From a virus: a stretch of 35,246 nt of DNA. A program made the translations under genes and the position numbers. This document shows positions 5,976-35,041 of this stretch, one piece after another. Numbering within the stretch: position 1 is the first letter of the stretch; every line of letters begins with the position of its first letter. The notes beneath the pieces are model-generated. The model did not search any database. It was not told the origin of the DNA and saw nothing but the letters and a program-made list of their open reading frames with translations. The stretch lies in UHGV virus genome UHGV-0095853; one strand, written 5' to 3'.

Positions 5976-6278
5976 ATGAAAATAATTTCGGTAAAAACAC
6001 TAAGGGATTTCTGGGCGAAGAATCCCGATGCAGAACAGCCATTAAAGGCATGGGTTGATGAAGCAACAAAGGCTGACTGGAAAAATCCGGCTGAGATCAA
6101 AGAACAGTACCGGACAGCCAGCATCCTTAAAAACAGGCGCGTGGTGTTCAATATTAAGGGAAATGATTACAGGTTAATTGTCGCAATTGCTTATCAGCGA
6201 GGATGGATGTTCGTTAAGTTTATTGGAACACATAAGGAATACGATGCCATTGAAGCGGATACAATAGAACTGGAGTAA
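5976..6278 (+). CDS. higB: Type II toxin HigB-family (RelE-fold mRNA interferase)
   Basis: About 100 aa; FNIKGNDYRLI and FIGTHKEYD signatures; directly followed by an HTH antitoxin. Confidence 0.75.
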   Translation: MKIISVKTLRDFWAKNPDAEQPLKAWVDEATKADWKNPAEIKEQYRTASILKNRRVVFNIKGNDYRLIVAIAYQRGWMFVKFIGTHKEYDAIEADTIELE

Positions 6279-6281
6279 ATC

Positions 6282-6641
6282 ATGAACATTAAACCTATCC
6301 GTACAGAACAAGATTATGAGGCCGCACTGCGTGCGGTCGAACCGATGTTCGATAACGAACCGGAAATGAACACACCGGAAGGCGATTTCTTTGAAGTAAT
6401 GTGCCTGCTCATTGAAGAGTACGAGAAAAAGCATTACCCAATTGAGCCACCATCACCTATTGAAGCCATTAAATTCCGTATGGAACAGCAAGGGCTGACC
6501 GTGAAGGATCTGGAACCGGCGATTGGTAAGTCAAATCGTGTTTACGAAGTGCTAAATGGGACACGAAATTTAACGTTACCTATGATTCGTCGTTTACATT
6601 CCCAGTTTGGCATTCCTCTTGAAAGCCTGGTTGGTGTATGA
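6282..6641 (+). CDS. higA: HigA-family antitoxin (XRE-type HTH)
   Basis: C-terminal HTH (LTVKDLEPAIGKSNRVYEVLNGTRNLTLPMIRRL); 3-nt gap after higB. Confidence 0.75.
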   Translation: MNIKPIRTEQDYEAALRAVEPMFDNEPEMNTPEGDFFEVMCLLIEEYEKKHYPIEPPSPIEAIKFRMEQQGLTVKDLEPAIGKSNRVYEVLNGTRNLTLPMIRRLHSQFGIPLESLVGV

Positions 6642-6645
6642 GTTT

Positions 6646-6672
6646 GGCGGTCTGTATGACCGCCTTTGTTGT
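6646..6672 (+). terminator. Intrinsic terminator after higA
   Basis: Hairpin ggcggtc-tgtat-gaccgcc followed by TTTGTTGT. Confidence 0.6.
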
Positions 6673-6675
6673 CAA

Positions 6676-7872
6676 TCAAGAACCTTTCTTCACGTACTCC
6701 ATAAACATTTTTTCAGCTTGCTCAGGTGACGTTCCTGCCATGACCAGTGCATCAATGAACGCTTGCTTCTTCAGTGCGAATTGATCGGCAAGGCGTTGCT
6801 GAAGCTCCTTGTTTTTCTGTTTCTCACGTTGCAAGGCTGCTTCTTTTGCTGCTGCCCGTTTTTTCTGTGCATCGGACAACTTTCTGGCCCTGGTCAGCTG
6901 GTCACGTAGCTTGTCAATCTTCCCGTTGTCCTTTGCCAGTTTTGTGCTTAAAGCGGCCTGGCGTTTCTGATAGAGCCTCCATTCGCGCTTGGCGGCTTCA
7001 ACGTTCGTTTTACTGCTACGATTGCGATTAAACTCCTTCTCGTCTTCTTTTGAGAAGTGTTTAGTTGTACGGCGGCGATCGTCACCAAATGCAATTTGCG
7101 TTGCGGCCTTTTGTAACGCACGAGCAATACTCATTTGCCAACTGGCGGACTGTAACCGCGTCATTGAGTGGATCACGTGTTTACAGGCGACGCCTTGTAG
7201 CTTAGGGTTACGAACTTTTGGATAGGCGTATTCTTTTGGCGGGGCCAGGGCAAAGTTACCCGCAGTAGCGATGTAACGATACCAGTATTGATGACGACCA
7301 CAGTCACAATCGAAAGACACCCGCCCGGCGCACAGTGATTTAGTGATTTTCAGAGCTGATTTATCGTCTTCTGCGATGTCATCGACCATCTGATCCCATT
7401 CTTCAAAGCGTATCCGGACGATATGGTGCTGGTGGACGGATATATCCGATGCTTCTACGCGGATATTAATCACGTTGTGGCGAAGAGATACAGGTGTAGC
7501 TCTTTTGATACCAGATCCGTCATCCACGGCGTTATTTGCACGCTTAATATCGATTGCCTGGCTGGATGCCACCAGCTGGGCGTATGTGATGCCAGCCGTC
7601 TTGCTGTCATATTTTTCGCGTGTTTTACTCCGTAGCTTTTCGAAACCTTTCAGGTCGTCTCGCGTGAAGAACGTGCCGCCTTTTTTCTTCCCTAACTTGA
7701 GAATATCTTCGGCGGATTTGTTCCTCAGTCTACCTGGCGTCAGCGTCCGGTGAGCTTGTCGGCGCTTACGGGTTTGTTCTTTCCTGATAAGGTCGAATAA
7801 ACGCGTGAAGTCCTTAGAGGACAGGCCGTCAGTGATATAGCGCCCGTCCTGGTTTTTCAGGAAATCAGGCAT
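6676..7872 (-). CDS. SWIM-type zinc-finger protein with Lys/Glu-rich C-terminal coiled coil; function unknown
   Basis: CxC...CxH motif (FDCDCGRHQYWYRY...GVACKHV); C-terminal 130 aa heptad-like K/E/Q-rich; GGAG 8 nt before ATG; overlaps upstream gene by 8 nt. Confidence 0.55.
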   Translation of the reverse strand: MPDFLKNQDGRYITDGLSSKDFTRLFDLIRKEQTRKRRQAHRTLTPGRLRNKSAEDILKLGKKKGGTFFTRDDLKGFEKLRSKTREKYDSKTAGITYAQLVASSQAIDIKRANNAVDDGSGIKRATPVSLRHNVINIRVEASDISVHQHHIVRIRFEEWDQMVDDIAEDDKSALKITKSLCAGRVSFDCDCGRHQYWYRYIATAGNFALAPPKEYAYPKVRNPKLQGVACKHVIHSMTRLQSASWQMSIARALQKAATQIAFGDDRRRTTKHFSKEDEKEFNRNRSSKTNVEAAKREWRLYQKRQAALSTKLAKDNGKIDKLRDQLTRARKLSDAQKKRAAAKEAALQREKQKNKELQQRLADQFALKKQAFIDALVMAGTSPEQAEKMFMEYVKKGS

Positions 7873-22471: not shown

Positions 22472-22723
22472 ATGAGCGACTGGAATATTGCAGCTAAAAG
22501 TCAGGAAGAACGGGATAAGGTTAACGTTGATCTGGCTGCCAGCGGTGTGGCGTACAAAGAGCGATTGAACATACCTGTCATAGCTGAACAGGTAGCCCGC
22601 GAGCAACCAGAGAATCTGCGCACCTATTTCATGGAACGGCTACGGCACTACCGGCAGTTAAGCCTCCAGTTGCCAAAAGGGAGCGATCCGGTGTATCAGA
22701 ACGAGGATGCACCAAAAAAATAA
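22472..22723 (+). CDS. Hypothetical protein (83 aa)
   Basis: ATG 2 nt after upstream stop. Confidence 0.5.
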
Positions 22724-22808
22724 CGGCAAGATGGGGGAGAAATGTGATTAGCCCCCAGCGTGGCGCGCCTACAAACCCCGCTTTCACAAACTATGCCTTT
22801 TCAATGTA

Positions 22809-22828
22809 TACTGTATGAATAAACAGTA
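22809..22828 (+). promoter_or_regulatory. LexA (SOS) box upstream of the UmuD'-like gene
   Basis: TACTGTATGAATAAACAGTA: CTGT-N8-ACAG with AT-rich centre, 19 nt upstream of the ATG. Confidence 0.7.
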
Positions 22829-22846
22829 TCATTGAGGTAAAACGCT

Positions 22847-23236
22847 ATGGGCTTCCCTTCTCCTGCGGCGGATTATGCAGAGAGCCGCATTTCTCTTGAT
22901 CAGCAACTAATCAGACATCCTTCCGCGACCTACTTCATGCGGGCGGCAGACAGCCATCACCGTGAGGGAATATTGCAAGGTGCTTTGCTGGTGGTTGATT
23001 CCTCACTTACTCCGGTTGATGGTTCACTGCTTATATGCGCCATGGAGGGTGAATATCGCATAAAGAGATACAGGAAGTATCCGCGCCAGCACCTGGAGGA
23101 TTTAAGCACCGGGAAGAAAGAGGCGTTACCAGTGGATGACGATGGATGCACGGGCAGTAATGCTGTGTTTGGTGTGATCACTCATGTCATTAATGATGCC
23201 CGAAGTGGGGAGTTTGATTATAGACCTGTGATTTAA
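22847..23236 (+). CDS. humD: UmuD'-like protein (P1 HumD-type, begins at the position of the UmuD autocleavage site)
   Basis: MGFPSPAADYAESRISLDQQLIRHPSATYF matches UmuD residues 25 onward; Ser and Lys of the S24 dyad retained; lacks the N-terminal 24 residues. Confidence 0.8.
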   Translation: MGFPSPAADYAESRISLDQQLIRHPSATYFMRAADSHHREGILQGALLVVDSSLTPVDGSLLICAMEGEYRIKRYRKYPRQHLEDLSTGKKEALPVDDDGCTGSNAVFGVITHVINDARSGEFDYRPVI

Positions 23237-23249
23237 GGCGCATAAAGAA

Positions 23250-23277
23250 GCCCGCCAGACCTGGCGGGCTTTTTGTT
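23250..23277. terminator. Bidirectional intrinsic terminator between convergent humD and the terminase-paralogue operon
   Basis: Stem gcccgccag / ctggcgggc followed by TTTTTGTT. Confidence 0.65.
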
Positions 23278-23281
23278 GATA

Positions 23282-24376
23282 TCATTCAATGATTTTTTCG
23301 GCTGTCAGCCAGCTAATTTCGTGCCTGTCTTTCGGCGGTTTTAGCATGTGAGCATATTCAGCGACATGCTCCCACGGAATTGTTTTTGCCCACTCAACGA
23401 TAGCATTGTGATCTGCAGTGAAGAGTGGAATAGTGTGCGATTTCAACCATTCTAATGTCGTGACGCCATGTTTTTTGGCGTGGTGCTGCGCATGATGCCG
23501 GGCTATCACTCGTAATGGCATTGTCCATTCACTACCATCAGGCATCGAAAAGCGCATTGTCTTCGGCATATCTGATTCAAGAACAGCCTCCCTAATACCA
23601 GGGAACTCACCAAGAATCATACGACGATAGTCATCACTATTTCGCCCGCCATACCTTTCGGCAAAATGATCAAGATATTCTTGGGTAATAAATGGTGAAT
23701 CCTCCGCACTCAGCTTAATGGCTTTATATACACCACTCGGATTATCTTCAGCTAAAGCACGTCCATGATGTGAATCATAAAAAAAGCCTATTTCCTCTGG
23801 TGACGGAATTGAAGTGAGCAATATGCGTGAATCACCACTAGTCATGCTTGCCCACACAATGCTGTATGCCCGATCGCTGATATGTGCGGAATCCACAATA
23901 ATGAATAAAAGATGGTCGGCGTAGTGACCTGCAATGCTATCTTCATAGTTAAGGCGGTAGTTACAAAAGCACATTCCCCAAAATTCATTGAACATCAGAC
24001 CGCTATCACCGACCTTAAAATACTCAATGATAAAAGGTTGTTTTTTCAGCAATGCCTCCCAACATTGCCACACATATGCAACAATTCCTCTTTTGCAAAC
24101 ATTTGATTTTGGATAAACAATTACTGTCCGGGAATCAGGATACATAATCGTATAAAGGGTACTAATAACAGCAAGCACTTGCGGTCGTCCGATCCCATAC
24201 GGAGTGGTGACAGTAGCTTTTGCATTATTGGGCTGTATAGCTTCAACAATTTGTTGTTGCTGGTGGCTTAAATCAATATCAAACAATTCTTTTGCTGCCA
24301 GTACCCAATTGTCTTTATATTTCTCCACCAGCGACAGCCAGCGCGGATCTTTATAAATATTGCTCTTAGTCGCCAT
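23282..24376 (-). CDS. Terminase large-subunit (PacB) paralogue with degenerate Walker A and B motifs, lacking the C-terminal nuclease region
   Basis: Collinear with the N-terminal two-thirds of PacB at 29676..31184 (DPRW, SHQQQ, FYDSHH, DNP.G, SPF.T, YGGR); Walker A TSGHGTGKSS replaced by TTPYGIGRPQ; Walker B LILDEA replaced by IIVDSA; ATG 24376. Confidence 0.65.
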   Translation of the reverse strand: MATKSNIYKDPRWLSLVEKYKDNWVLAAKELFDIDLSHQQQQIVEAIQPNNAKATVTTPYGIGRPQVLAVISTLYTIMYPDSRTVIVYPKSNVCKRGIVAYVWQCWEALLKKQPFIIEYFKVGDSGLMFNEFWGMCFCNYRLNYEDSIAGHYADHLLFIIVDSAHISDRAYSIVWASMTSGDSRILLTSIPSPEEIGFFYDSHHGRALAEDNPSGVYKAIKLSAEDSPFITQEYLDHFAERYGGRNSDDYRRMILGEFPGIREAVLESDMPKTMRFSMPDGSEWTMPLRVIARHHAQHHAKKHGVTTLEWLKSHTIPLFTADHNAIVEWAKTIPWEHVAEYAHMLKPPKDRHEISWLTAEKIIE

Positions 24377-34466: not shown

Positions 34467-34542
34467 TGGTGGCCCCTACCGGACTTGAACCGGTGACCGT
34501 GCGATTATGAGTCGCCAGCTCTAACCACTGAGCTAAAGGGCC
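34467..34542 (-). tRNA. tRNA with CAU anticodon, closest to tRNA-Ile2 (ileX/ileY type, lysidine-modified)
   Basis: GGCCCTTTAGCTCAGTGGTTAGAGCTGGCGACTCATAATCGCACGGTCACCGGTTCAAGTCCGGTAGGGGCCACCA; about 10 differences from E. coli ileX as recalled. Confidence 0.8.
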
Positions 34543-34680: not shown

Positions 34681-34954
34681 CACTTGCAGCTACCTTTTAA
34701 GACAAAACGCCATTGCTGTTAGATTGCGGTGCCGGGTGCCTCCCGGTGACGTTAACCAGTTAACAATTAACGCCGGGATGTTTGACTTAACTATTGAGGA
34801 AAATTGTTTTAACTGTTCCGCGTGCGCTTAGCCGCATTCACCGCAATGGTAAGAGCACTTGGCTGGCTGGGCGGCGATGACGCCTGTACGCATTTGGTGA
34901 TCCGGTTCTGCTTCCGGCATTCGCTTAATTAGCCAAATACTCTTAACGTTGCGC

Positions 34955-35041
34955 TGGCGGAGAGTAATGGAATCGAACCATCATCGCTTGCGCAATGGGA
35001 CGGTTTTCAAGACCGCTTGAGCACCATGCTCCCTACTCTCC
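34955..35041 (-). tRNA. tRNA-like gene, class II (long variable arm), apparent anticodon UGA (Ser), atypical D-arm
   Basis: 7-bp acceptor stem GGAGAGT/ACTCTCC, T-loop TTCGATT, anticodon loop CTTGAAA, 3' GCCA. Confidence 0.45.

Follow-up and report, generated by a model that had tools for sequence, protein, structure and literature searches.

The gene humD of the window, by which we mean the whole analysed stretch of 35,246 nucleotides from the virus genome UHGV-0095853, very probably encodes an SOS-controlled and pre-activated mimic of UmuD', a subunit of the error-prone DNA polymerase V of E. coli in its activated form. The gene belongs to a D6-like phage-plasmid and its product would act together with the UmuC protein of the host. 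Gene and operator are both already known, the gene is also already annotated, and they are found here in a phage-plasmid lineage that is known as well. The coordinates of humD, its control elements and its neighbours are collected in Table 1.

Table 1. Position of humD, its predicted control elements and other features of the window.
Feature	Position	Strand	Remarks
hot (DNA polymerase III theta homologue)	22472-22723	+	Pfam DNA_pol3_theta, E 4.6e-34; 91% identical to P1 Hot
Predicted sigma-70 promoter of humD	22783-22812	+	TTCACA (22783-22788), 18-nt spacer, TATACT (22807-22812)
Predicted LexA operator (SOS box), TACTGTATGAATAAACAGTA	22809-22828		Palindromic 20-mer; core CTGT-N8-ACAG at 22811-22826
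Shine-Dalgarno GAGGT	22834-22838	+	8 nt 5' of the humD ATG; read from the sequence
TAA in frame with humD	22838-22840	+	3 codons 5' of the ATG
humD	22847-23236 (including stop codon)	+	ATG start; 129 aa; UmuD'-type protein
Intrinsic terminator hairpin, AAGAAGCCCGCCAG/CUGGCGGGCUUUUU, then U-run	23245-23274		Direct folding
Convergent neighbour of humD, 364 aa	23285-24376 (end 23282)	-	PHROG 5902; weak local match to phrog_2 (terminase large subunit), E 8.8e-9
Protein with C-terminal Tad2-like (Thoeris anti-defence 2) domain, 220 aa	25143-25802	-	Pfam PF11195, E 1.6e-22
tRNA-Met (CAT)	34467-34542	-
STnc100 match	34725-34845	-	Between the two tRNA genes; Rfam, exactly at gathering score (47 bits)
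tRNA-Ser (TGA)	34955-35041	-

The assignment of the protein is well supported by profile and structure searches. The NCBIfam HumD family equivalog NF051876 is matched over all 129 positions of the profile with 209.4 bits (cut-off 120), whereas the score of the NCBIfam UmuD subfamily model (86.8 bits) stays below its cut-off of 110. Pfam Peptidase_S24 (E 1.2e-8) and the PHROGs entry 'UmuD-like protein' (E 2.3e-54) were also recovered, and the best PDB matches are the UmuD' chains 1UMU, 1I4V and 1AY9 together with the UmuD chain of 8GMT (E 6e-23 to 1e-17). RefSeq lists exactly the same protein sequence under the name 'HumD family translesion DNA polymerase'. Compared with the alleles of P1, RCS47 and D6, the dN/dS ratio (Nei-Gojobori) is 0.06-0.11; the gene is under purifying selection.

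According to the first-pass annotation, the protein starts exactly where UmuD is autocleaved, and the alignments agree with this in every respect. Gly2 of HumD is matched to the first residue of the UmuD' chain 1umu_A and, in the complete UmuD of 8gmt_B, to residue 25, which comes directly behind the Cys24/Gly25 cleavage site, and a MAFFT alignment with UmuD of strain K-12 likewise placed Gly2 opposite Gly25. The N-terminal segment with the Ala-Gly or Cys-Gly cleavage site that is found in self-cleaving S24 peptidases is absent and the open reading frame begins with the glycine of this site. Because of the in-frame TAA shortly upstream of the start codon, a longer N-terminus including the arm is not encodable. 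This type of start is a hallmark of the family, as 98 of about 103 representatives with a length of 120-135 aa begin with MGFPSPA.D.

Loss of the catalytic Ser and Lys had been named as something that an alignment might reveal, but both positions of the dyad are retained in HumD (S36 corresponds to S60 and K73 to K97 of UmuD). The surrounding G-D-S-M motif of S24 peptidases is degenerate and reads A-DSH, with the Gly deleted and the Met replaced by His (residues 34-38). Among 120 cluster representatives of the HumD family the position of UmuD Ser60 is occupied by Ser in about 60% and by Thr in about 35%, the flanks vary freely, and DSHH, RSHF, CSHF, ATHY or NTCY is found in place of GDSM. The Lys of the dyad is invariant in an alignment of 18 family sequences. 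Such a decay of the peptidase motif fits a protein that would have no further need of self-cleavage. Because GDSM is degenerate and the Ser position is occupied by Thr in about one third of the clusters, the HumD family is not simply UmuD minus its arm.

A C-terminal strand with the sequence VFGV(I/V)xHV is conserved, and the tail (..SGEFDDCPV[MI]) is conserved throughout the family and absent from E. coli UmuD. In the allele of the window the tail is changed from GEFDDCPV to GEFDYRPV (23198-23236, residues 118-129), which replaces two nearly invariant residues; the form GEFDYRPVI was found in 4 of the 120 clusters. The substitutions are bunched in the last 18 nt of the gene and the nucleotide similarity to P1 and RCS47 stops at the humD stop codon, so that the 3' end of the gene may well be a recombination junction. 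An AlphaFold2 model calculated from a family alignment of 17 sequences was poor (mean pLDDT 55, pTM 0.49); a model is dispensable in view of the homology to UmuD' proteins of solved structure.

Turning to the control region, a canonical LexA box had been postulated 19 nt upstream of the gene. The box is present close to the start codon and only the distance was off by one, which is immaterial: the gap between ACAG and the ATG is 20 nt, or 18 nt if it is counted from the end of the 20-mer. To judge the quality of the box, we compared it with the consensus and with the operator of umuDC. TACTGTATGAATAAACAGTA agrees with the consensus TACTGTATATATATACAGTA at 17 of 20 positions and all three mismatches are located in the central spacer. 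The identity to the E. coli umuDC operator (TACTGTATATAAAAACAGTA, taken from MG1655), which has a gap of 21 nt between ACAG and the ATG, is also 17 of 20. The bare 16-nt pattern CTGT-N8-ACAG by itself is weak evidence for an operator, with 0.32 copies expected per window and at least one copy in 26 of 100 shuffled windows. In contrast, a 20-mer with three or fewer mismatches to TACTGTATATATATACAGTA did not occur in any of the 100 shuffles. The 16-nt pattern is found a single time in the window and also a single time in the closest whole plasmid (89.7 kb).

Furthermore, the box extends over the final 4 nt of the predicted -10 hexamer and likely over the transcription start of humD as well. The location of a box near TACTGT(AT)4ACAGTA in overlap with a promoter is the arrangement that characterizes the SOS regulon. 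The promoter matches the consensus at 10 of 12 positions and was the sole promoter-like site on the plus strand of the scanned 1.2-kb region; as about 1.7 sites of this quality are expected there by chance, the match taken alone is only suggestive. The sequence of promoter and operator is identical in the window, RCS47 and D6. In P1, the box, the Shine-Dalgarno sequence and the gene start are conserved next to unrelated sequence farther upstream, and in the GenBank record of P1 the corresponding 20-mer carries the label 'LexA binding site in the regulatory region of lxr and humD'. A search for a divergent partner of the operator on the minus strand of the window yielded as sole candidate an ORF of 52 codons with a GTG start, which runs antisense to hot and was not considered to be a gene.

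To place the operator in a wider context, we used 40 loci of the HumD family from other genera including Enterobacter, Citrobacter, Klebsiella, Scandinavium, Yokenella, Erwinia, Franconibacter and Trabulsiella. A strict CTGT-N8-ACAG box precedes the ATG in 21 of them, in 19 cases at a distance of 16-23 nt (in one of these loci another box is located at 47 nt) and in two cases only at 35-45 nt. Five further loci contain only near-consensus boxes, which are paired in three of them, and the remaining 14 have no box. In the boxed loci CTGT and ACAG are constant and the spacer is variable, just as one would expect if the operator is functional. On the other hand, with 14 of 40 loci lacking a LexA box, SOS control is neither obligatory nor universal in the HumD family.

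The box-less loci (L010, L013, L015, L017, L020, L034-L037, L040, L041, L045, L048 and L049) share a common organization: in all 14, humD is located immediately behind an upstream ORF, the product of which ends with ..F.NPNGG in many cases. These humD genes are probably operonic and LexA-independent. At the other extreme, some humD genes of Kluyvera, Klebsiella and Citrobacter are preceded by two tandem LexA-type boxes, which are about 24 nt apart and lie about 45 and 21 nt 5' of the ATG. The loci with tandem boxes are L009, L014, L016, L018 and L032, with the boxes about 20-47 nt upstream of humD.

Judged by its sequence, the window comes from a D6-like phage-plasmid of E. coli that belongs to the P1 family. 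The identity to plasmid pEHP91H1-2 (NZ_CP149812.1) is 99.7% over 23 kb, at least 80% of this 23-kb stretch is covered in 31 plasmid records, and phage D6 aligns across 42% of it with 95% identity. Sequences of the humD type (at least 80% nucleotide identity) were found in 684 of 5426 complete E. coli genomes (~13%), and 698 of the 715 places are located on plasmids.

The upstream neighbour of humD is hot, which has the same orientation, lies outside the SOS unit and is separated from humD by no evident terminator. Read-through from hot could add some LexA-independent expression of humD. The hot gene is intact in the window and in RCS47, and D6 carries an internal deletion that fuses it to the hot-humD intergenic region (locus L004, 5438-5584). 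On the 3' side of humD a simple terminator scan listed nothing, but direct folding revealed a strong hairpin with -24.7 kcal/mol (z = -4.6), which none of 200 shuffled sequences could equal. As the convergent gene on the minus strand ends at 23282, this terminator is probably bidirectional. Due to the hairpin and the convergent gene behind it, humD is a one-gene unit. The genes lxr, phd and doc were found by tblastn neither in the window nor in the closest plasmid. As lxr is absent and hot is located codirectionally upstream, the operator serves humD alone in the lineage of the window.

The convergent gene for a protein of 364 aa occupies the site that is taken by phd-doc in P1, RCS47 and D6. 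Farther downstream, the protein with the Tad2-like domain, which in the closest plasmid is merely labelled as DUF2829, may be an anti-defence gene product of the phage-plasmid. Two tRNA genes with an STnc100 match between them lie close to the end of the window.

A well-known relative is P1, which is described in a passage of PMC7092418 as encoding a shorter and already activated UmuD named HumD. The first-pass annotation had pointed to this protein as precedent, and the comparison bears it out: P1 HumD (P1_gp103, YP_006569.1) has the same length and is identical to the window protein in 123 of 129 residues (95%). Both proteins start with MGFPSPAADY, and both genes have a LexA box, a Shine-Dalgarno sequence and no umuC partner. 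Two of the six amino-acid differences are located in the conserved tail (DDC to DYR). The surroundings differ more strongly, as the LexA box of P1 is common to humD and the divergent lxr and phd-doc follows 3' of humD, whereas in the window hot is located directly upstream and a terminator with a convergent gene follows on the 3' side. The P1 record states that humD 'functionally complements E. coli UmuD''.

P1 HumD was reportedly characterized in 1999 and its LexA site was annotated in the P1 genome of 2004. The protein is said to complement UmuD', to dimerize, to bind UmuC and RecA filaments and to restore mutagenesis in recA430 and Delta-umuDC backgrounds. It is reportedly poorly expressed, with only weak complementation from a low-copy vector.

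Closer to the window, RCS47, D6 and other D6-like phage-plasmids share the hot-humD junction, and the HumD of pEHP91H1-2 (WP_032342035.1) is identical to that of the window; in this comparison, pEHP91H1-2 does not differ from the window at all. RCS47 and D6 differ from the window in that they retain phd-doc 3' of humD. UmuD of E. coli is more distant. Its UmuD' core shares 45% identity with the window HumD in an alignment of 115 residues and has the dyad positions in common, but HumD lacks the N-terminal arm of 24 residues together with the cleavage site, its GDSM motif is degenerate, and it has an insertion of 4 residues and a C-terminal extension of 10 residues. Unlike umuD of E. coli, humD of the window is also not part of an operon with umuC. 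Orphan genes of the UmuD' type are known from the linear plasmid prophages N15 (gp26) and phiKO2 (gp23), with a nucleotide identity of about 66% over most of the gene and a genomic setting that differs from that of humD in the window.

The statement that the window encodes no polymerase partner holds, and it also applies to the closest whole plasmid. Using E. coli UmuC as query, tblastn detected no homologue in the window (best E 1.7) and none in the closest whole plasmid of 89.7 kb (best E 3.4), the annotation of which also contains no polymerase. The Y-family polymerase gene directly 3' that defines umuDC-type operons like umuDC, mucAB, impAB, rumAB and samAB is missing at humD, and at all 40 HumD-family loci a distance of 6 kb was likewise free of UmuC homologues. 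Only four remote relatives with about 40% identity, found in a Pseudomonas genome and in MAGs labelled Proteobacteria and Chitinophagaceae, have an adjacent umuC. Three loci from Proteobacteria/Chitinophagaceae MAGs (L051, L052 and L054, positions 6001-7617) encode proteins of 115-117 aa that start with MGFPSPA and are located directly 5' of a umuC homologue; these may be pre-truncated UmuD' genes inside an operon of the umuDC type. The presumption of the first-pass annotation that the host supplies UmuC is reasonable for E. coli: since umuC is present in 5423 of the 5426 complete genomes, and almost always on the chromosome, the protein is available in practice.

Taken together, we propose the following course of events. 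In the unstressed cell, LexA of the host would bind to 22809-22828, cover the -10 element and the start site and keep humD switched off. DNA damage would lead to the activation of RecA, to self-cleavage of LexA and thereby to transcription of humD. Methionine aminopeptidase removes Met1 in front of Gly and, as residue 2 is Gly, this removal is also expected for the product of the window allele, which would then have the same N-terminus as RecA-processed UmuD'. Because HumD has no 24-residue arm and starts like UmuD', RecA-mediated cleavage would not be needed. A HumD dimer and the chromosomally encoded UmuC of the host, which is itself SOS-induced, would then assemble into a hybrid polymerase V, which would be responsible for translesion synthesis and mutagenesis. 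For the window allele we infer the binding of LexA, the removal of Met and the partnership with UmuC. In view of its 95% identity to P1 HumD, the protein should be able to replace UmuD' in mutagenesis, in binding of UmuC and RecA filaments and in dimer formation.

Other explanations have to be weighed against this scenario, and the one that touches the operator concerns its origin. If CTGT-N8-ACAG were a chance match or a relic, humD would be expressed via a hot operon or constitutively, and LexA would have no part in its control. The frequency of the bare pattern in shuffled windows, the 14 box-less and operonic family loci and the position of hot directly 5' on the same strand are compatible with this idea. 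Nevertheless, a chance origin is unlikely because of the 17/20 match of the 20-mer, its likeness to the umuDC operator, its uniqueness in 89.7 kb, the overlap with the -10 element, a distance to the ATG that is nearly that of umuDC and its conservation in P1, where the box is kept although the upstream flank is unrelated. The conserved position across genera despite a variable spacer points in the same direction, and as a whole we regard this explanation as highly improbable. A similarly small probability applies to the assumption that HumD has retained the activity of an S24 serine peptidase and cuts another protein in trans, for example a phage repressor or UmuD or LexA of the host, and that the likeness to UmuD' is secondary. 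Ser36 and Lys73 at the dyad positions, the match to Peptidase_S24 and the name 'S24 family peptidase' in some RefSeq records would be in line with such an activity. However, the GDSM motif is lost, a Thr at the Ser position in about one third of the family clusters together with variable flanks fits a relaxed catalytic constraint, and no substrate candidate is evident.

It is also conceivable, but in our view improbable, that HumD modulates or antagonizes the UmuD/UmuD'/UmuC network of the host instead of simply activating polymerase V. This might be achieved, for instance, by heterodimers with UmuD or UmuD' of the host or by titration of UmuC, RecA filaments or the clamp, and might cancel a checkpoint exerted by UmuD2C or shift the timing of the SOS response to the benefit of the element. 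In favour of a modulator are the divergence of the family from UmuD' at the active-site motif, an identity of only 45% to UmuD', and the conserved C-terminal extension of 13 residues missing in E. coli UmuD, which suggests an extra interaction. Yet P1 HumD with its 95% identity is annotated as a functional replacement of UmuD' and reportedly restores mutagenesis, and the sequence indicates no specific inhibitory mechanism. Therefore, we retain the pre-activated UmuD' mimic that works with host UmuC as the preferred explanation.

With its decayed motif, invariant Lys and conserved tail, the HumD family might form a distinct clade in which the tail could mediate an additional interaction or act as a stability signal, so that phage-plasmids would be able to tune the SOS mutagenesis of their host; this is a tentative idea and rather unlikely to be correct as a whole. 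If it were true, the window allele with GEFDYRPVI would be a natural tail variant with possibly altered activity. More generally, genes of the humD type would provide the host with a mobile source of a mutagenesis subunit that is pre-activated and controlled by the SOS response, and they may thus be relevant for stress-induced mutagenesis and for the way in which resistance evolves in strains with P1- or D6-like phage-plasmids.
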